Program-made: the position numbers and the translations under genes
Shown: piece by piece, positions 3,521 through 52,597 of the stretch
Position numbering within the stretch: the stretch's first letter is position 1
Layout: every line of letters begins with the position of its first letter
The notes under the pieces: model-generated
Seen by the model: only the letters and a program-made list of their open reading frames with translations
Told to the model about the DNA's origin: nothing
Database searches by the model: none
Source: Naegleria gruberi
Taxonomy: Eukaryota
Strand: one strand, 5' to 3'
Length of the DNA: 64,000 nt
Assembly: GCA_000004985.1 (NCBI GenBank)
Contig: GG738917.1

Positions 3521-3752
3521 TGGTGTATCTTCCTCCTCTTCAGTTGAAGACTCTTCCGCACTCTCTGATTCATCTGCATCAGATGAAGAGATGTGAATCT
3601 GTTGCTTGGCAACACTGTTTTGTTTAATTAATCTCCTTTTACTTCCATTATTATTATTGTTGATATTATTACTATTGGGAAGACTTTGACTAATGGTCGG
3701 ATGTTGTTGTTCTAATGTTGATGATGATGAACCAATAATTCATAATATTCNN

Positions 3753-4300
3753 NNNNNNNNNNNNNNNNNNNNNNNNNNNNNNNNNNNNNNNNNNNNNNNN
3801 NNNNNNNNNNNNNNNNNNNNNNNNNNNNNNNNNNNNNNNNNNNNNNNNNNNNNNNNNNNNNNNNNNNNNNNNNNNNNNNNNNNNNNNNNNNNNNNNNNNN
3901 NNNNNNNNNNNNNNNNNNNNNNNNNNNNNNNNNNNNNNNNNNNNNNNNNNNNNNNNNNNNNNNNNNNNNNNNNNNNNNNNNNNNNNNNNNNNNNNNNNNN
4001 NNNNNNNNNNNNNNNNNNNNNNNNNNNNNNNNNNNNNNNNNNNNNNNNNNNNNNNNNNNNNNNNNNNNNNNNNNNNNNNNNNNNNNNNNNNNNNNNNNNN
4101 NNNNNNNNNNNNNNNNNNNNNNNNNNNNNNNNNNNNNNNNNNNNNNNNNNNNNNNNNNNNNNNNNNNNNNNNNNNNNNNNNNNNNNNNNNNNNNNNNNNN
4201 NNNNNNNNNNNNNNNNNNNNNNNNNNNNNNNNNNNNNNNNNNNNNNNNNNNNNNNNNNNNNNNNNNNNNNNNNNNNNNNNNNNNNNNNNNNNNNNNNNNN
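3753..4300. other. assembly gap (548 N)
   Basis: Run of N characters. The X-containing ORFs at 3690-4385 on both strands are artefacts of translating across the gap. Confidence 0.99.
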
Positions 4301-42599: not shown

Positions 42600-45500
42600 C
42601 TACAATCTTTCTAATTCTTGAATTACTTGTTCTATGTTTGGTCTTTTGGACGGATAATGATTCCAACATTTGGTGATTAATTGAGTGATTGTCCAGTAGA
42701 TTTCTGCATTCTTTTCCTCATCAAATTCAATGCACCATTCTCTGCATGATTCCAAATCGTCGAATGGTATTTTTGGCCTTAAATTATCCTCACAAATAGA
42801 TCTGTGTAATAGCAATTGTGATGGATATTGATTTGGTTTTTCCATTCTTATTTTCCTTAAATAATTTTGATTGCTTGATGTGTAGGGATCGGTAGTTTCA
42901 AATAGAACTTGATATAAAATGATTGAGAAACTATAAATGTCGATGGCCTTAGCATCTGATCTTTCAATTTCCTTAATTGGCATGCTTACTTCAGGACTGT
43001 TGAAAATTAATGAACATCAATTATTATCAAATACTAACCTCATGTAATAGCATGTTCCAATGTGATTTGTGAGCGAAGAATAGGTATGCGTAGATAATAC
43101 TCTTCCCAATCCAAAATCACACAATTTACAAATGGAATGATTGTTGTGCAAGAGTACATTGGCTGGTTTTAAATCTCTGTGAACAATATAATTGGGTTGT
43201 AAATTGTGTAAATATGAAATTCCATAACAAATTTGTAGCAATAAATTCAATTTTTCTCTGATTGGACATTTCAAACTTTCATTTTGTAAATCAGACAAGA
43301 ATGATTCTAAACTTCCTTCCATACATTCCATAATAATGTATCTCTTAGTAACTCCACTAGAAATTCCATAAAAACTAATAATATTAGGGTGTCTTAATTT
43401 AGAGAGAATGGTCGCCTCTCTAAGGAAATCTTCTTCTGATATATTCATATTATTCAAATCGAATACCTTTACAGCAACTTGAATATTCTTCCAGGTTGAC
43501 TTGAAGACTGCTCCTATACCACCAGTACCCAATCTTTTGATGTTTTTATCGAGATTCAAATCTTGAAGAGGTATGAAGAATGATTCTTCCTTTTCATCTG
43601 TTAAGGAGGAGCTTGTTGAATGAGTAGTGAATGAAACATCCTCTGGTAAGAGCAATCTCTGATCCAATTGGATGTCAGTGTCAATAATTCTCTTTTGCCT
43701 ACGATATTTCGAAACAATGCAACCCAGTACAATAATAATTGCAGTAATGAAAATTATTAGAAATGAAAGAGATCCAAGAGTAGCTCCTAAAATCACATCT
43801 GAATTATCCAATTTTTGACATTGATCACCATGATAATTATTCTTACATTCACAATAGTCAGGCTCTAGGCATGTTCCTCTTCCACCACATACTGAATCAT
43901 CATTTGATGGTTTTCCAAAACAGAGTGGATATTGACATTCTCTTCCAGAATACTTTTTGGGAGTACATAAACATTGGTCCTTCTCTACACACTTTCCATT
44001 ATAAGAACCTCCACAAGAAGTGTTGGTTGGTTTTCCAAAACAAATTGGTTTTTCACAAACCATTCCAACGTAACCCTCCATGCATTTACAATTATCTGGA
44101 GAAAGACATTGACCTCTACCATTACAAACTTCTGGATTTAAACTATCCTTTCCGTAACAAAGTGGATATTTGCACTCATCTCCAATATAATTAGTACTAC
44201 AACTGCATTTGTTTGGATATAAACAATCACCATTACCTGAACATACAGAGCTATTGTAACTAGTCAATCCAAAACAAACTGGTGTACAGAGAGAGAAATT
44301 TGAATCAAGAGCGTAACCTAATGGACAACTAGGTACAAATTGTTGAATATAATTGATCTTTGCAGAATAGAGAATTCCTGTATCCTCATCCACAGTAAAA
44401 GCATGAGAGACATCCATTGCAACGGTGCGAATAGTTCCATCTTTGTGTGATATTTTCTTGACAGTATAACTGGTTATTGAAAAATAGTCAGCAAAGAAAA
44501 TATCTTCTGATTTTGTTACCTGAATGGATAGTGGATAGGTGAGTTGGGCATCTGTGGCCTTGATTCCATCCGCAATTATATTGCCACCTCCTGCAATGGT
44601 AGTAACGTATCCATTCGAAACCTTTCTTATTAGTCTATTACCAGTATCACCTATTTTCCAATATTATTAAATCTGGTATCGAGTAATTACTTACAGAAAT
44701 AAAAATCATTCTCATTAAGAGATGAAACTGCCATATTGGATGGCAAATTCAATAGGGCATCTTCATTTCTGACCTTATTTCCATTAAATCCAAATCCTTT
44801 TCCAACAATTGTACTAACTATTCCTTCAATACTAATTTTTCTAATGAGGTGGTTATAAAAATCTGCAAATATAATTTCTCCTTTTGAATTTGAAAAAGCT
44901 CCTCCTACCTTAGCAACAGCATCCAATGATTTTCCATAATCACCTATACCTCCTGCTACAGTAAGTGCTGAAAATGCTAGACTTCTTAAATCTAGGGATA
45001 ATAATCTCACTCTATTATTTGAACTATCTGAAATGTATATAGAATCTGAGTCTATGAACAATCCTTTAGGATTGAAAAACTTAATATTGTATGATGTAGA
45101 AGAATCTCCATTGTAGCCACTCTCTCCCGTTCCAATTACCATTGTTCTACCAGTAGTTGGGCTATATGAAATAATCCTTGAATTGTAAGAGTCAGCAATA
45201 ACTATTGCACTGCCATCCACTACAACTGCATGAGGATAAGATAATGATTTTAGATTCAAAAGCACTGATTTACCAGAATTAGCTCCAAATACAGTAGTTA
45301 ATTGATTGGTTATTAAATTGAAACGCTTGATTTTGTGATTGTTTGTATCGGCAATCATCAAATCAGGATAATTAACATGAATACCTTTTGGTGAATTCAA
45401 TTCTATTTCAGTAAGATCATTACTCTGTACAGTATCACCAGGAGTTCCAACACCTACAATGTTTAACAGCTTTGGATTAAGAAAGGTAGTTGCAACAATT

Positions 45501-47200
45501 CTATTATGTAATGTATCTGCTATAAAAAGGTGAGTAGAATTAAAGCTCAATCCATAAGGACCTTTAAGAGGAGATAAACTACTACCACATATTCCAACAA
45601 AATTAGATAGTGTTCCATTCTTAATTTGTCTAATGCAATGATTATCTGTGTCAGATATATAAATATCACCATTTTTCAAAACAACAATACCATTAGGATT
45701 GCTTAAATAGGACAACAAGGGATCACCAATTAAAGAGTAACCACTAATTCCTGTTCCTGCAACGTTAACCACAAAACCATCTTGTGTAATTTTTCGTATT
45801 CTATGATTTTGAGAATCAGCAAAATAAATTTCACCATTTTGTTTAAATATTCCTGTGGGATGGTTGAGTGTAGAAATATTGGAAGGAACATTATTACTTT
45901 TTTCAACGTGCTCATAATAGGCCACATAGTCACAAAGCATATTCTCTGATTCTAGGAAATTCAATTTTGAAAGAGCATCTTGACTGATAATAAGTAAAGA
46001 ATTATCATTCCTATTCTTGAAGAATTGACCAACAGAAAATGCTCTATTATTCGTGTCACTACATGTAGATTGATAGGAAAGAGTGTTCACAACTTGCTTC
46101 TCAAATGAGTAAGTTCTTAAACTTTGTAAATCAGATATGACCATTTCTTTGGGACCATCAACTGTTCGTCTCATCATTGACATGGAATAGATTGCAGTAA
46201 ATGTGAAATTATTTACATTTGCTCCCTCAATTGCAGCTCCTCCCAGAGTTAAAAAACCTTGAGAGATTCCATTTTCCACTTTAGTCACATTATTATATCC
46301 ACAATAAAATAGTTGTTTTGAATCATCGAGTGATACTAAACAAGGTCTTTCAATATTTACAAATTGAGGCGCATTGGGAGCATCAATGGAAGGATATTCT
46401 ACAAAATTGTATTCATTGCAAGCTGGTGAAGATGCATTACACTGTATATATGCATAATTTGGATAAATATAAATAATAAAGTGTAATGTTTTTTCTGATG
46501 TAATTGAATTTTTAGAAACACGTAATCGATAAAGCATATCAACAGTACGAATGTTCCTCTTTTCTGATAAATCCAATACTGAAAGTATTTTAACTGAGCT
46601 ACGTTGAGTTCCCAAATATAGCTCATTATCCATTAATTCAATTTCGTGTATTTCATCTTGATTCAATGTAGTAAATTGACTCGTCGTTCTATTTAATGTC
46701 ATGTTAAATATCTTTACAATAGATGAACCATTTGCAATAATAAACGAATCCTCATAAATAACAAAATCCATATTTACAATATTTCCAGTATAGTAAACAG
46801 TTGTATTTCCTCTCTCGGGAGATAACATGATGATTTTATCTGAAATTGACATGCCAATCACTTCATTTCCCTCACCAATTTGATGCACCACTAAATTTGA
46901 TTGTAAATCACATCCAATTCCAAAATCTCCAACACTAAATATTTCCCCTGTCAATGTATGAAATTTGTTCAATTTTGAGGAACTATCGGAAACAAAATAA
47001 ATAAACGACTTGTGCAAAATTGATGGTGCCATCAATTGTACAGGTAATGTAATTAGTGAAATGTTTGGTAAATTTCCAAGTCGAGTGCCACTATTTTGAT
47101 AAATTGGATGAAGAAATGTGTCCAGTGAGTGGACCTCACCAACCAAAACCACACACAAGAAGAAAATCACAAAAGTGGTTGTGAATGATCTTGTTGGCAT
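42600..47200 (-). CDS. receptor-like protein kinase (about 1,504 aa): signal peptide, N-terminal domain, 6-7 NHL repeats (beta-propeller), 5 tenascin-type EGF repeats, transmembrane helix and TKL-type Ser/Thr kinase; 3 exons (44695-47200, 43039-44650, 42600-42996)
   Basis: The 837-aa ORF 44687-47200 (signal peptide MPTRSFTTTFVIFFLCVVLVGEVHS; NHL repeats such as YFADSQNHRIRKI, YISDTDNHCIRQI, FIADTLHNRIVAT, MIADTNNHKIKRF, VIADSYNSRIISY, YISDSSNNRVRLL, IFADFYNHLIRKI) ends in ...FYFC|GTAAGT. A 44-nt intron joins it in frame to ...DTGNRLIRKV..., a further NHL repeat running without a stop into ORF 43017-44417. That ORF has EGF repeats (CSGNGDCLYPNKCSCSTNYIGDECKYPLC x5), a TM (LGATLGSLSFLIIFITAIIIVLGCIV) and a kinase (GTGGIGAVF..AVK; HRDLKPANVLL; DFG; ...YYM|gttagt...cag|SPEV). 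A second, 42-nt intron falls within subdomain VIII. Confidence 0.7.
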
Positions 47201-47299: not shown

Positions 47300-48552
47300 T
47301 AAATTTAAATTACTAATCTATTATCATGTCATATCAAATTATTCCATTAAAAATGAGCAAACGAAATAGACAAGATTTTCAAAGTCATCATCAATTAATT
47401 AATTATTCGGAGGAGGAAATATTCACTAACAATAGAAGTTGTGAAACTCCAATAAGAAATATTTTCAGATGATGTTTGTTTTGAAATAATTTCCATGATT
47501 GATGATTCGTGGTTTATTTTGAATAATTGTTCCTTGATTTCAAAACAATTCTTTAATGTGATCAAGGAACGTTCAAAACTTGTTATTCAATTTAAAAAAA
47601 AATTTACAGAGAAAAGAGTTGAATTACTCATGAAAAGTCAATTTATGAAGATGTTGAATTTTCTAGCAATTTGCTTGACTCTATAGAAACAACCAAATTC
47701 ATAAGTGAAATGAAACAATTAACATCACTTAATATTAATTACAATCAAATTGGTGATGAAGGAGCTAAATACTTAGGTGAAATGAAACAATAAACATTAC
47801 TTAATATTTCTTAAAATGAAATTGGTGATGAAGGAGCCAAACTTATAAGTGAAATGAAACAATCACTAGAAAAATAACCTGTTTAGAGATTGTAATTATT
47901 ATTATTGGTGTACAACTTTAATTTTGGTGCATTTTACAGTATTCAAGCAGAGAAGGAACTTCAGTGAGAGAAAGAATCTCACAAATCTTTGGCAATACCA
48001 CAAGTGAATAAAACTCAACAAACGGCCTTGAATGAACTGAAACACTTGTCGAATATGGAATTGGATTGTTGAAAGAAAGATTTTCATCAATTTCACATTT
48101 TTCACAAATTCTCCAAGTGTCAGGCTGTGAACCAGCTTTGTCCATAGCTGAGCCAAAATGTTTCAAACAAGTTGAACATCTTACAAACTCTCCACCAGTA
48201 TGGACTGCGTGAAACTCAATCAGTGTGTATCCTTTAATGTGATACACTTTGGAGAATTTAGAAATCATAACACCACCAGAACTTCCAAAAATTAAACTTT
48301 CAGAACTGGCTAAACACTCTTGGTTGGACTTATCGTAACAAAAGTCTTCAACTTTTTCTACAAGTCCATTTTGAGTGAAATCATAGGGGTGAAGTATCTT
48401 TCCAACACTTGCACACAATGTTCCATAACCATTGAAGATATTGTCCTTCAAGAAGGATTCACTTGGAGCCCAGTCTACATAATTCTGACTGCTAGAGAAA
48501 GGAGAAGGTTTATTCTCGTCTCCTGGATACGAAAGGGTAATATTTCGTCATT
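47300..48552. repeat. copy A of a tandem duplication of about 1.25 kb (LRR-fragment region + 3' part of the trypsin-like protease gene), ending in an N-gap
   Basis: 47311-48552 is co-linear and about 90% identical (with small indels) to 48603-49673. Both copies end at assembly gaps. Confidence 0.75.
47918..48552 (-). CDS. trypsin-like (Trypsin_2/chymotrypsin-fold) serine protease with a C-terminal Cys-rich zinc-finger-like tail; duplicate copy A (3' part, truncated by gap)
   Basis: It is identical to the C-terminal part of 49253-50101 (..ECLASSESLIFGSSGGVMISKF.. with the catalytic Ser in GSSGG; C-terminal CSTCLKHF...WRICEKCE). The ORF-track 'M' at 48451 is a TTG codon. Confidence 0.5.
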
Positions 48553-48602
48553 NNNNNNNNNNNNNNNNNNNNNNNNNNNNNNNNNNNNNNNNNNNNNNNN
48601 NN
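48553..48602. other. assembly gap (50 N)
   Basis: N run. Confidence 0.99.
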
Positions 48603-49673
48603 TTAATTACTAATCTATTATCATGTCATATCAAATCAGAAAAAATTATTCCTTGAAAAAATGAGCAAACGAAATAGACAAGATTTTCAAAATCATCAAT
48701 TAATTAATTAATTATTCGGAGGAGGAAATATTCACTAACAATAATATATACGGAAGAGGAAGTTGTGAAACTCCAACAAGAAATATTTTCAGATGATGTT
48801 TGTTTTGAAATAATTTCCATGATTGATGATTCGTGGTTATTCAATTTAAAAAAAATTTACAGAGAAAAGAGTTGAATTACTCATGAAAAGTCAATTTATG
48901 AATGGCATTGTTGATGTTGAATTTTCTAGCAATTTGCTTGACTCTATAGAAACAACCAAATTCATAAGTGATGAAACAATTAACATCACTTAATATTAAT
49001 TACAATCAAATTGGTGATGAAGGAGCTAAATACTTAGGTGAAATGAAACAATTAACATCACTTGATATTAATTACAATCAAATTGGTGATGAAGGAGCCA
49101 AATTTATAAGTGGAATGAAACAATTAACATCACTTAATATTTCTGAAAATCAAATTGGTCATGAAGGAGCCAAATTTATTAGTGAAATGAAACAATCACT
49201 AGAAAAATAACCTGTTTAGAGATTGTAATTATTATTATTGGTGTACAAGACTTTAATTTTGGTGCATTTTACAGTATTCAAGCAGAGAAGGAACTTCAGT
49301 GAGAGAAAGAATCTCACAAATCTTTGGCAATACCACAAGTGAATAAAACTCAACAAACGGCCTTGAATGAACTGAAACACTTGTCGAATATGGAATTGGA
49401 TTGTTGAAAGAAAGATTTTCATCAATTTCACATTTTTCACAAATTCTCCAAGTGTCAGGCTGTGAACCAGCTTTGTCCATAGCTGAGCCAAAATGTTTCA
49501 AACAAGTTGAACATCTTACAAACTCTCCACCAGTATGGACTGCGTGAAACTCAATCAGTGTGTATCCTTTAATGTGATACACTTTGGAGAATTTAGAAAT
49601 CATAACACCACCAGAACTTCCAAAAATTAAACTTTCAGAACTGGCTAAACACTCTTGGTTGGACTTATCGTAA
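48603..49673. repeat. copy B of the tandem duplication
   Basis: See copy A. Copy B carries three intact RNI-type LRR units (48968-49210) versus two stop-interrupted units in copy A (47702-47880). Confidence 0.75.
48968..49210 (+). CDS. short ribonuclease-inhibitor-type leucine-rich-repeat ORF (3 x 'MKQLTSLNINYNQIGDEGAKYLGE'); probably a gene fragment
   Basis: 80 aa of 28-residue RNI/NLR-like LRR units. The copy-A counterpart has in-frame stops and a frameshift relative to upstream ORF 47495-47686. No convincing full-length gene could be built. Confidence 0.35.
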   Translation: MMKQLTSLNINYNQIGDEGAKYLGEMKQLTSLDINYNQIGDEGAKFISGMKQLTSLNISENQIGHEGAKFISEMKQSLEK

Positions 49674-50101
49674 NNNNNNNNNNNNNNNNNNNNNNNNNNN
49701 NNNNNNNNNNNNNNNNNNNNNNNCGTCATTTGGTTGCAAATTCGTGGTGAGGGTATGAAAAACACCTTATTTGGAGAACCAGAGAAATTCATTGCTGTAA
49801 TATCAAAGAAATCAAAGTTTCCTACAGTGGTAGTAATTGGATCTCTACCAACCCAATTTTGGGTAACTGGAAACGATTTTTCCATTTGGAAATATTTGAT
49901 TGCTTTTCCTGAAAACAAAGTTTCTAACTTTTTTGGCATTCCTGAGATTGTACTGTTAATATTCCATGAGTTGCTGTACGCATTTACCTTACCAATGGAT
50001 TCAATCTCATTAGCAACGTGGCTGTTTGTAATAATTGTGTTGGGAAGAATGTAAAATCCTGATCCTGAAGCCGTTTTAGTGATCTCACCAAGTTTCTTCA
50101 T
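49253..50101 (-). CDS. trypsin-like (Trypsin_2-fold) serine protease with C-terminal Cys-rich tail; copy B, interrupted by a gap
   Basis: N-terminal GSGFYILPNTIITNSHVANE (His of the triad in TNSHV), C-terminal GSSGGVMI (Ser), then C-x2-C...C-x2-C. The frames on the two sides of the gap junction (...PRICNQMT / RNITLSYPGDENKP...) are offset by +1 with no clean intron, so the gene may be a pseudogene or mis-assembled. Confidence 0.5.
   Translation of the reverse strand: MKKLGEITKTASGSGFYILPNTIITNSHVANEIESIGKVNAYSNSWNINSTISGMPKKLETLFSGKAIKYFQMEKSFPVTQNWVGRDPITTTVGNFDFFDITAMNFSGSPNKVFFIPSPRICNQMTXXXXXXXXXXXXXXXXXYDKSNQECLASSESLIFGSSGGVMISKFSKVYHIKGYTLIEFHAVHTGGEFVRCSTCLKHFGSAMDKAGSQPDTWRICEKCEIDENLSFNNPIPYSTSVSVHSRPFVEFYSLVVLPKICEILSLTEVPSLLEYCKMHQN
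49674..49723. other. assembly gap (50 N)
   Basis: N run. Confidence 0.99.
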
Positions 50102-50444
50102 GGAGAATAATCTAACAACAGCACTAGCACCTTCCGAAGCACTTTCTAATGCTTTGAGATTATCAAAATATTCTACAATGACTTTCAGTTAGGTGGCGTC
50201 CAAGTCGGCTGTTTATACCAAAAGACATTGAAGCAGGCATTTGGTGGATAATGTTCCTTACCAGGAGTCCTCTGGGAAGAAGTATTCTCACAAACCTCCT
50301 CCCCAGTTCGAGGAATATAACAGGTAACCACTTCAAGACGCTCTCTGACGAATCTCATTTTTTTTAAGGTTACTTATTAATTGTACAAGTTCTGTAAGTT
50401 TTTTTTGGTTTTCACACAATTTATTTTCTTGTAGTGATTGTTTG

Positions 50445-50770: not shown

Positions 50771-52597
50771 TTACATTGATCTCTTTATTTCGTCATCAAC
50801 GATTAAGCCCCACTTTCCTTTGTGTGTTATCCAAGTAATCTTTCTTCCTTCGAGAGCCATTTTGGCATATTTTGTCTTTTTGTCCTTGTTTTGTTCGATA
50901 TAAACAATTTCTCCAATACGAACAAATCTACAGGCACCATCATTAGTTGTAATTTCATATTCAGAACCCTTAATTGTGACTGATGAAATTGTTGAGTTGT
51001 GGATAGCTTCGTGAATAGTTTTCAATTCCTCATCTGTCAATTCTTCGCCTTCAGGTCTGACAATTGCTGAATCAGAAGATTGTAAATGTTGTTGCATGTC
51101 TGGATTGACCATTTGGAATTCACCTGCTTCTCTATAACACAAACCTAAGAACATTGATTGCATAGAGTCCATATCCTTTAGTTCAAATCTCTTACCACCA
51201 GTTTCATCAGCAAGATATTGATAGAATTGATCAGCATGAGGTCTTGCCTGACATTGTACAGAGTGAATTTTGATGTGATAGTCATTAAATAATGATTGAC
51301 ATTCTTCTTGCCAGTCAATCTTGAAATATTCTGTTGCTGTGTGTGGAACTTCATCTCCAATCATAACCAAACATCTTTGAGTGAAAGCATTGTCCTTTGG
51401 AGTCCAACTTAATGTTTTTGCTTCTTTTAGAGCTAATTCATAACATTCTGCTGGGTCTAAACCACCAGTACCTTTCAAAGATTGAACAAAACTAACTATT
51501 TGTTCAATATCATTTGAAAAGTCTAATTTCTTCATCACATAGAATAAACTTGAATCGGCATAATCTCCGTGAGCAATTAAAGAAATGAAAAGTCCAGGAA
51601 CATCCTGTAATAATTTTTCACACATATTTTGCAACTTCCATTTCAAATCATCAATAATATTAATTTGTGAACCTGTAGTATCAAAGACAAAACAAATTTG
51701 AATAGCAGGTGTTTCATCAGCTGTCTTGAAAGTTCTATTTCCTTCAATGAAATAACATCCTTGTAAAACTTCCTTTAAAGTCATCTTCTTTGTTACAAGA
51801 GCATTGGTATCAAAATATTCACATTCTTCAGTTGGTAAATTGGAAATAGCCCAATGTGATGCATCAACATCACCTCTCTTGTATTCATTACCAGGTGTTT
51901 TTGCTAACAATCTTCTCAGTGCTTCTTCGTAATCAATGTGAGAACTTTGATATTCAGAGTATCTATTACCAGGAGTTCTTGTAGTAGTTGTGTGACTATC
52001 ATCTCTTGGTAAATTTGTGAGTGAAATATTTGTTGGTCTGGAAGGAGTTGCTCTTGATGGAGTAGAAGATGATGATGCTGCTGCACTACTACCAGTTGCA
52101 CGAGGAGTTACTTTCTTTGCCTTTTTGACTGGTGTCTTTTTTGGTGTAACAATTCTTTCTTCTTCACTTTCAGAAGAAGAAGAAGATTCGTCTTCACTTT
52201 CGGCTTTTCTCTTTGGTGTAGCTTTCTTCTTTGGTGTTGAAGATGAGCCTGTCTTTTTCTTTGGTGTGGATGATGAAGATGATGATGTTGCAGCCTTGTT
52301 CAATTGTCTCAAATCAATTTCACCCACTTCATAATCTTCCAAATATTCTGGCAATTTACCTCTGTTCGATCTACTAGGTGTTGTTCTTTTTTCTACAGTA
52401 GGTGTTTTCCTCTTGGAAGTAGTAGCCTTCTTCTTCTTTGGTGTTGTGGAAGTTGTTGTTGTTGTTTCCTCTCCATCATCAACCATTTGATCAGCAGCTG
52501 ATGATGATGAGGCTGCAGCGTTGTTGTTTTCTAGTTCTTCTTCATCGTGATGAGATGAAGTTGCTTGTTGTTTTGGATCACTTGAAGAGTCAGCCAT
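50771..52597 (-). CDS. von Willebrand factor A (vWA) domain protein with a long basic, histone-H1-like Ser/Thr/Lys-rich N-terminal region
   Basis: 608-aa single ORF. The N-terminal 200 aa are disordered with repeated TPKKK / TPKRK / SPxK motifs (CDK-site-like, H1-tail-like). The vWA core (ICFVFDTTGSQ...GLFISLIAHGDYADSS...TGGLDPAECYELALKEA...LVMIGDEVPH) has a MIDAS-like DxTxS. The about 110-aa C-terminal domain was not recognised. Confidence 0.6.
   Translation of the reverse strand: MADSSSDPKQQATSSHHDEEELENNNAAASSSSAADQMVDDGEETTTTTSTTPKKKKATTSKRKTPTVEKRTTPSRSNRGKLPEYLEDYEVGEIDLRQLNKAATSSSSSSTPKKKTGSSSTPKKKATPKRKAESEDESSSSSESEEERIVTPKKTPVKKAKKVTPRATGSSAAASSSSTPSRATPSRPTNISLTNLPRDDSHTTTTRTPGNRYSEYQSSHIDYEEALRRLLAKTPGNEYKRGDVDASHWAISNLPTEECEYFDTNALVTKKMTLKEVLQGCYFIEGNRTFKTADETPAIQICFVFDTTGSQINIIDDLKWKLQNMCEKLLQDVPGLFISLIAHGDYADSSLFYVMKKLDFSNDIEQIVSFVQSLKGTGGLDPAECYELALKEAKTLSWTPKDNAFTQRCLVMIGDEVPHTATEYFKIDWQEECQSLFNDYHIKIHSVQCQARPHADQFYQYLADETGGKRFELKDMDSMQSMFLGLCYREAGEFQMVNPDMQQHLQSSDSAIVRPEGEELTDEELKTIHEAIHNSTISSVTIKGSEYEITTNDGACRFVRIGEIVYIEQNKDKKTKYAKMALEGRKITWITHKGKWGLIVDDEIKRSM

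Follow-up and report, generated by a model that had tools for sequence, protein, structure and literature searches.

A gap-bounded repeat beside a chymotrypsin-fold protease gene of Naegleria gruberi is probably an allelic contig misplaced in the assembly

The 64,000-nucleotide stretch of DNA analyzed here (referred to as the window) belongs to a 223,047-bp scaffold of the Naegleria gruberi NEG-M Sanger whole-genome-shotgun draft; seven of its ORFs have exact N. gruberi protein matches, all from this one scaffold. According to PMC6125883, the draft consists of 784 scaffolds and 1,977 contigs. The locus of interest is interrupted by two scaffold gaps, whose 50 N probably stand for a minimum or unknown size, and carries on their flanks two copies of the same sequence. 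A third N run lies near the start of the window, where we looked for a flanking duplication and saw none. The positions of these elements are as follows:

3751-4300, no strand: third N run of the window, 550 N.
47306-48338, no strand: copy A of the repeat, in the terminal portion of contig 1 (whose final position is 48552), as defined by alignment with 48603-49673.
48553-48602, no strand: scaffold gap 1, 50 N.
48603-49673, no strand: contig 2, equal to copy B, 1,071 nt, wholly inside the end of contig 1 by alignment.
49674-49723, no strand: scaffold gap 2, 50 N.

The two copies match in 938 of 962 ungapped columns (97.5%) and differ by eight indels that sum to 180 nt, which brings the identity to ∼82% when indel columns are counted; an earlier figure of about 90% with indels, from a preliminary description of this DNA, is a fair one. 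The same description had about 1.25 kb present twice. The repeat is real, but the part common to both copies is ∼1.03 to 1.07 kb, the last 214 nt of contig 1 (48339-48552) having no counterpart in copy B. The mismatches are distributed very unevenly. To the left of position 47915, in a part that carries leucine-rich repeats (LRRs), there are 24 among 538 aligned nucleotides (∼4.5% substitutions), versus none among the 424 nucleotides of the protease part (47915-48338, equal to 49250-49673), a switch with a Fisher p of 7.6e-7. A search of the window for further LRR or protease copies found none.

The LRR part holds two versions of one RNI-type LRR gene:

47353-47877, plus strand: RNI-type LRR pseudogene, version A, with 2.4 LRR_6 units and, at its N terminus, an F-box-like region.
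48661-49210, plus strand: RNI-type LRR pseudogene, version B, with 3.4 LRR_6 units.

These units form tandem arrays with a 72-nt period (2.4 units in copy A, 3.4 in copy B) and match Pfam LRR_6 (PF13516) in three stretches with 72 bits, against a cutoff of 23.4. Version A is broken by two in-frame TAA stops and by frame breaks, one of which is a 10-nt deletion at 47649, in agreement with the earlier view of copy A as frame-broken and stop-interrupted. Copy B had been credited with a short intact ORF; a residual ORF of 80 amino acids is indeed present (48968-49210), but version B has also lost 70 nt from its F-box-like region and 2 nt from its first LRR. The LRR gene thus appears to be a pseudogene remnant, each version of which seems to have been disabled by different lesions.

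The opposite strand encodes a divergent clan-PA, S1B/S1C-like serine protease with a chymotrypsin fold. Its parts are spread over all three contigs:

49724-50358, minus strand: protease 5' part, contig 3, located by tblastn with XP_002681429 and XP_002668564.
50358-50356, minus strand: start ATG.
50186-50187, minus strand: 1-nt deletion in a Cys codon, by which TWTPP-N-C-K becomes N*; paralogues read PPFCKY, PPICKY and APNCKY.
50029-50015, minus strand: catalytic His motif TNSHV (His 50020-50018), in the single-copy 5' part.
49816-49796, minus strand: FDFFDIT with the candidate catalytic Asp (49804-49802), the invariant D189 of the family alignment.
47918-48552, minus strand: protease 3' part, contig 1, with the stop codon at 47920-47918.
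48541-48518, minus strand: ITLSYPGD, in the 3' part.
48286-48272, minus strand: GSSGG (nucleophile Ser 48280-48278), in the 3' part.
48178-48167 and 48106-48095, minus strand: Cys4 tail, CSTC and CEKC, C-x2-C-x20-C-x2-C.
49253-49673, minus strand: redundant image of the protease 3' end in contig 2, 100% identical to 47918-48338.
49621-49607, 49513-49502 and 49441-49430, minus strand: GSSGG, CSTC and CEKC of the contig 2 image.

The preliminary description placed the 3' half of the protease, from TNSHV to GSSGG, in the duplicated unit and a single 5' half at 49724-50101. GSSGG and the Cys4 tail are duplicated, but TNSHV is located in the 5' part, which does occur once and which extends beyond the limit then given, across the 1-nt frameshift at 50186-50187, to the ATG at 50358. 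Situated ∼460 nt into contig 3, this deletion probably represents a genuine frameshift, on account of which the protease copy at this locus is likely to be either a pseudogene or a gene truncated at its N-terminal end. The existing annotation is as unreliable as had been suspected: the window protease is without a database protein model, and XP_002668564 is a partial model with a contrived N terminus.

The sequence on the two sides of contig 2 can be rejoined directly, since contigs 1 and 3 share their terminal nucleotides:

48546-48552, no strand: CGTCATT, with which contig 1 ends; the same 7 nt open contig 3.
49724-49730, no strand: CGTCATT at the start of contig 3, 7 nt that overlap with 48546-48552.

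A terminal overlap of at least 7 nt is expected by chance with a probability of ∼1.8e-4, and no such overlap was seen when the ends of contig 2 were checked against both neighbors. We merged contigs 1 and 3 at CGTCATT without contig 2 or either gap, and inserted three single bases. This yielded an ORF of 421 amino acids, residues 1 to 420 of which align with residues 1 to 423 of the intact paralogue XP_002681429 at 67% identity. Across the join the reconstructed protein reads IPSPRILQPNDEIITLSYPGD without gain or loss of a residue, in exact agreement with XP_002668564 and the family consensus. Two of the three missing bases are situated 12 to 17 nt from the two contig ends, and it is these two single-base deletions that account for the mismatch of protease frames across the junction, which had been correctly recognized before. 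We rejected an intron across the junction as its cause, since both the paralogue and XP_002668564 read straight through the same codons. Missing bases so close to contig ends are what read tails of low quality would be expected to leave where coverage gives out, suggesting that the contigs do not end at a well-covered repeat fork.

Another copy of the protease is represented by XP_002668564, a partial model from a separate scaffold of 11,321 bp, which is ∼99% identical over the homologous protease part and which ends at HTGGEF, corresponding to position 48185 of the window, inside the 100%-identical block. This scaffold is probably an allelic piece of the same locus.

On the sequence evidence, we consider it probable that the apparent tandem duplication is a false duplication, in which contig 2 would be a second allele placed beside the first. 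The locus would be heterozygous, with contigs 1 and 3 together representing one haplotype. Reads from the other haplotype, with eight indels in the LRR part that include one whole 72-nt unit, would have been unmergeable and would have formed a separate contig of 1,071 nt, roughly the length covered by one Sanger read or a few. Mate pairs would have tied this contig to the neighborhood; unable to place it on top of contig 1, the scaffolder would have put it in the nearest gap, between contigs 1 and 3, with the 50-N minimum on each side. The differences in the LRR part fit the mosaic heterozygosity reported for N. gruberi, for which a mean polymorphism of 0.58% is cited second-hand from PMC3507753 and PMC6125883, although a divergence of ∼4.5% with many indels is well above this genome mean and speaks against an allelic origin. 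With a single copy restored, the true order would be an NHL-repeat gene (minus strand), the LRR pseudogene (plus strand), the protease gene (minus strand) and a VWFA gene. The LRR pseudogene and the ∼1.27-kb protease gene would stand tail to tail, so that one ordinary, slightly damaged serine-protease gene would be found beside a dead LRR gene. The UniRef100 entry of the VWFA neighbor is marked n=2 in N. gruberi; its second member may be another redundant piece of the locus.

It is unlikely that the repeat arose instead by a real, recent tandem duplication of a unit of ∼1.25 kb (about 47300-48552) that copied the LRR pseudogene together with the 3' half of the protease. In that case copy A would contain a dead 3' protease fragment, copy B would make up the full gene together with ∼207 nt hidden in gap 2, and the contigs would break where the assembler forked at the edge of the duplication. 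In favor of this, the copies are direct repeats within a single scaffold, each LRR version has disabling lesions of its own, as would be seen in diverging paralogues, and a fork at the right boundary, 48552, would also account for the coincidence of the end of contig 1 with the start of contig 3. However, a single duplication of uniform age is at odds with the switch from 24/538 mismatches with eight indels to 0/424 (p = 7.6e-7). A protease fragment that is dead would be expected to drift in the same way as the LRR pseudogene, so that gene conversion would have to be invoked in addition. The base errors at both contig ends point to low-coverage read tails rather than to a well-covered fork, the ∼207 nt needed in gap 2 are given as 50 N, and there are redundant, probably allelic scaffolds in the region. 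Moreover, contig 2 reaches just 40 nt left of the first diagnostic difference and stops there, reaching no junction. If the duplication were real, it would be a duplicate of very recent origin, seen while it decays. The preliminary description had left the choice between a recently duplicated, decaying locus and a collapsed or expanded repeat in the assembly. The terminal overlap, the full colinearity of the joined contigs 1 and 3 with the paralogue and the extra, probably allelic scaffold favor an assembly artifact, specifically an expansion and not a collapse, over a real duplication, while "decaying" remains a true description of the genes.

That contig 2 is a paralogous segmental copy from elsewhere in the genome, brought here by mis-scaffolding, is highly improbable. 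N. gruberi has several paralogues of the protease, XP_002681429 among them, and LRR_6 genes are repetitive, as such an origin would require, but contigs 2 and 1 are colinear over two unrelated genes and the intergenic spacer between them, and they are 100% identical over 424 nt, compared with a protein identity of 67% for the nearest true paralogue. In addition, no other sequence of the window resembles contig 2. We give equally little credence to structural heterozygosity, with a tandem duplication on one haplotype and none on the other. Being compatible with everything that supports either main reading, and with the reported heterozygosity of N. gruberi, it nevertheless demands both a duplication and allelic divergence and is less parsimonious, and no evidence speaks for it specifically.

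Under the preferred reading of contig 2 as a second allele, the segment 48553-49723 (gap, contig 2 and gap) should probably be removed from the N. gruberi reference or be given the status of an alternate haplotype. Three fragments that defy annotation would then become a single model of a gene or pseudogene. Such false duplications make young duplicates seem more numerous than they are and mask heterozygous variants.

The protease itself is a minor lead, as a lineage-restricted, uncharacterized, S1-like family with a conserved Cys4 element. The family is small, with ∼35 representatives among 1.84 billion clustered proteins, and its members come from Naegleria, Willaertia, Acrasis, Rotaria-labeled records and environmental contigs, i.e., mainly from Heterolobosea; intact members, NAEGRDRAFT_63466 being one, occur in Naegleria, Willaertia and Acrasis. 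No mention of the family accessions was found in the literature. An alignment of 18 members shows that D189, S307 and G308 are invariant and that the triad has the order His-Asp-Ser. The AF2 model of the paralogue XP_002681429 (pLDDT 72, pTM 0.80) is a chymotrypsin-like double beta-barrel, and its best Foldseek matches in the PDB are Esp, V8, DegS and HtrA1 (E of ∼1e-8, TM-to-target 0.6 to 0.74). A viral origin was considered and rejected, as the BFVD matches are generic trypsin-fold proteins with 8 to 14% identity.

A profile search with Trypsin_2 and zinc-finger models had been proposed for the reconstructed protease, and both kinds of model stayed under their Pfam cutoffs. There is a weak profile match over the His region. 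The repaired window protein scored 19.4 bits with Trypsin_2 (PF13365), below the gathering threshold of 27.6, and only 4 of 18 family members match PF13365 at E ≤ 0.01. For the Cys4 tail, the best curated zinc-ribbon model in Pfam was Zn_ribbon_10, with an E value of 0.085 and 13 bits versus a cutoff of 24, and over residues 341 to 380 the XP_002681429 model has a pLDDT of 46 to 63 and no confident knuckle geometry. The C-x2-C...C-x2-C pattern is kept, with both pairs, in most full-length family members, and the Cys4 element probably binds zinc. To call the combination of protease and zinc finger at this locus unusual was an overstatement, given that the tail is conserved across the family and is not a product of the locus. 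The uncharacterized family combines a divergent S1-type catalytic domain with a conserved N-terminal MRFxR..EV, the Cys4 element and a helical C terminus, and it might represent a new intracellular clan-PA variant, should the Cys4 element prove to bind zinc and to govern activity or the choice of substrate.

Compared with known systems, the LRR pseudogene shares with RNI-like LRR proteins (LRR_6, PF13516) the 24-residue units LTSLxIsxNxIGdEGAKxIsEMKq, but differs from typical ones in that 2 to 3 units are left and that both versions contain stops or frameshifts. The protease resembles clan PA S1B/S1C enzymes (V8/Esp glutamyl endopeptidases, Spl and DegS/HtrA; PF13365) in its TNxHV and GSSGG motifs, its His-Asp-Ser order and its double barrel, whereas its identity to them is 10 to 15% and the family has long insertions. 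Relative to S1B/S1C, the family adds the conserved N-terminal MRFxR..EV, the Cys4 element after the second barrel and the helical C terminus, and it is without a PDZ domain or an obvious signal peptide. Contig 2, in turn, is comparable to the haplotype-derived "duplicated contained contigs" of Sanger assemblies, which are mostly <2 kb with a median identity of 98.1% (Kelley & Salzberg 2010, Genome Biol 11:R28; PMC2864568); haplotype-derived false duplications have also been treated by Ko et al. (2022, Genome Biol 23:205). This class of misassembly is defined by a mate-pair test; contig 2 is a candidate member by its sequence, and the indel load in its LRR part is above the typical one. In other respects the likeness is close: contig 2 is small and bounded by gaps, has the size and identity of the class, aligns over its whole length to the end of its neighbor within one scaffold, and derives from a diploid that is heterozygous, and once it is removed the flanking contigs are contiguous and the gene is restored.

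The preliminary description of a repeat at the two 50-N gaps was confirmed by alignment, with its boundaries corrected: the segment 47306-48338, at the end of contig 1, is directly repeated as contig 2 (48603-49673). The features of this region are as follows.

3751-4300: run of 550 N
42600-44417, minus strand: receptor-like protein combining several EGF/teneurin-type repeats with a transmembrane stretch and a protein kinase domain
44687-47200, minus strand: NHL-repeat protein of 837 aa with a signal-peptide-like N terminus
End at 48552: contig 1
48553-48602: run of 50 N between contigs 1 and 2
48603-49673: contig 2 (1,071 nt)
49674-49723: run of 50 N between contigs 2 and 3
Start at 49724: contig 3
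Plus strand: remnant of an RNI-type LRR gene, with an F-box-like N-terminal region followed by 24-residue LRR_6 units
50358-50191, 50185-49736 and 48541-47924, minus strand: protease blocks matched by tblastn
50771-52597, minus strand: VWFA-domain protein XP_002670315.1 (NAEGRDRAFT_59739), exact ORF match

In a global alignment of the contig 1 copy (A) with the contig 2 copy (B), 938 of 962 ungapped columns match (97.5%), with eight indels of 1 to 70 nt each that total 180 nt. The alignment found no counterpart in contig 2 for the final 214 nt of contig 1 (48339-48552). Divergence between the copies is sharply bimodal, switching at position 47915 (Fisher P = 7.6e-7): to its left, 24 of 538 aligned nt are mismatched and all eight indels occur, and to its right 47915-48338 and 49250-49673 show no mismatch over 424 nt. 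The main rival to an assembly artefact, a genuine tandem duplication of 1.25 kb bounded at 48552, would likewise fork the assembly where contig 1 stops and contig 3 starts. However, we consider it unlikely, given that the divergence is not uniform, that contig 2 stops short of any junction, and that ∼207 nt would have to fit into a gap recorded as 50 N. Far less probable still is a distant paralogue misplaced as contig 2 during scaffolding, since the two contigs are 100% identical over 424 nt and colinear across two genes. Unlike the two 50-N gaps, the 550-N gap showed no flanking duplication in a blastn comparison of 1.5 kb from each side.

The LRR remnant scored 72 bits against LRR_6 (cutoff, 23.4). 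Its units correspond to tandem repeats of 72 nt, of which copy A has 2.4 and copy B has 3.4. Version A has a deletion of 10 nt and is interrupted by two in-frame TAA stops, while version B has lost 70 nt of the F-box-like region and 2 nt of the first LRR but retains an 80-aa ORF at 48968-49210. Both versions are disabled, by different lesions, and the LRR gene at this locus is a pseudogene.

Tail to tail with this remnant, on the minus strand, lies the protease gene. Using the intact N. gruberi paralogue P0002 (XP_002681429, NAEGRDRAFT_63466, 427 aa) as the tblastn query, we obtained blocks reaching 50358 and therefore moved the start of the protease from the earlier 5′ limit of 50101 to the ATG at 50358. 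The heptamer CGTCATT is both the end of contig 1 and the start of contig 3, a terminal overlap (≥7 nt) with a chance probability of ∼1.8e-4; contig 2 overlaps the adjacent contig at neither of its ends. Merging contigs 1 and 3 at these 7 nt, with both gaps and contig 2 removed and three single bases restored, yields an ORF of 1,266 nt (421 aa), whose residues 1-420 align with P0002 1-423 at 67% identity. Across the join the protein reads FFIPSPRILQPNDEIITLSYPGD, with zero residues missing or extra, which exactly matches the family consensus and P0001, a protease model from another scaffold. Two of the restored bases, in an A-run of contig 3 and a T-run of contig 1, lie 12-17 nt from the contig ends, as low-quality read tails would give; such errors also argue against a real duplication. 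The mismatch of frames across the junction noted previously is thus real and is explained by these losses. The third base, in a Cys codon at 50186-50187, is probably missing through a genuine frameshift, since it lies ∼460 nt inside contig 3 and outside any homopolymer, and the protease copy at this locus is probably decaying.

Seven long window ORFs match N. gruberi proteins exactly, and all of these proteins are encoded on one 223,047-bp scaffold, which belongs to the NEG-M draft. P0001 (XP_002668564, “partial”) lies on a scaffold of 11,321 bp and is ∼99% identical to the window protease over the homologous part, from which it differs by a single Ser/Asn substitution, a one-codon indel and a junction that is intact; its model ends at HTGGEF, corresponding to 48185, within the block identical between the window copies. 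Its N terminus (MRFVRERLEVV-MLYSSNWGG-ESASEG, compared with window 50326-50290) uses another reading frame of the same DNA, with an intron skipping the 50186 frameshift region, which makes a disruption of the allelic copy at that point probable as well. The UniRef100 entry of the VWFA-domain protein, which adjoins the protease, is labeled n=2 within N. gruberi, suggesting that a second identical copy exists, probably on the same 11.3-kb scaffold. From the P0001 scaffold and this label, we infer that a second haplotype of the neighborhood was assembled separately. Among the other neighbors, the receptor-like gene falls in two ORFs (43017-44417 and 42600-42983), probably split by a short intron, and the exact NHL-repeat ORF was not found in the protein collection, so its public gene model must differ.

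Queried with P0002, an exhaustive HMMER search of 1.84 billion clusters returned only 35 family representatives (E ≤ 1e-3). The named ones belong to N. lovaniensis, Willaertia magna, Acrasis kona, records labeled Rotaria sp. and, as several paralogues, N. gruberi; the rest are environmental or Logan contigs. In an 18-sequence family alignment, D189 (Asp) and the S307-G308 pair in GSSGG are invariant, and TNxHV and GGEF(V/I)xCxxCL are conserved, the latter with a further CxxC behind it in most of the full-length members. The AlphaFold2 model of P0002 (pTM, 0.80; pLDDT, 72), in which the Cys4 segment has low confidence, matches staphylococcal Esp and V8 as well as DegS and HtrA1 (Foldseek E ∼1e-8; TM to target, 0.6-0.74), proteases also matched weakly in a profile search of PDB sequences. 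The window protein reached 19.4 bits with Pfam Trypsin_2, under the threshold of 27.6 (only 4 of the 18 members match), and had no significant match to Pfam zinc-ribbon models. The motifs and predicted fold point to a divergent S1-like protease, and “trypsin-like protease with a zinc-finger-like tail” is an apt description; the architecture, previously called unusual, is instead the usual one of a small uncharacterized family mainly in Heterolobosea and not specific to this locus. No specific relationship to viral proteins emerged, and no mention of these protease accessions was found in the literature. P0005 (XP_002677737.1, N. gruberi, 1,019 aa) joins 300 N-terminal family residues to ∼700 unrelated ones, at whose end lie a transmembrane segment and a kinase-like GxGxxG motif. 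Either this fusion arose in the gene model, or it is real and lacks the catalytic Ser half. P0010 and P0040, annotated in a bdelloid rotifer assembly (Rotaria sp. Silwood1), could reflect contamination or horizontal transfer, and the environmental member P0017 (JGI metagenome) has a C-terminal zf-MYND domain. This uncharacterized family is the remaining lead of the locus.

Of the two possibilities raised initially, a duplicated locus or an assembly artefact, the contig-end overlap, the identity pattern and the extra scaffold favor the latter, and a real duplication is less likely. The duplication is most likely a false one, created by assembly at a heterozygous locus, rather than a real genomic feature. 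Contig 2 would then represent the second allele of 47306-48338, kept separate from contig 1 by indels that include one whole LRR unit and then dropped by the scaffolder into the adjoining gap. Haplotype 1 would comprise contigs 1 and 3, and haplotype 2 would comprise contig 2 and the 11.3-kb scaffold, overlapping within the identical block. A false duplication explains why the contig ends abut and are of poor quality, why the pattern of identity is mosaic, why both gaps have the minimum size and why there is an extra scaffold. The N. gruberi NEG-M draft comprises 40.9 Mb in 784 scaffolds and 1,977 contigs (PMC6125883). The situation of contig 2 would be that of the “duplicated contained contigs” known from Sanger assemblies of heterozygous diploids, which mostly stay below 2 kb, match at a median identity of 98.1% and adjoin their counterpart (PMC2864568).
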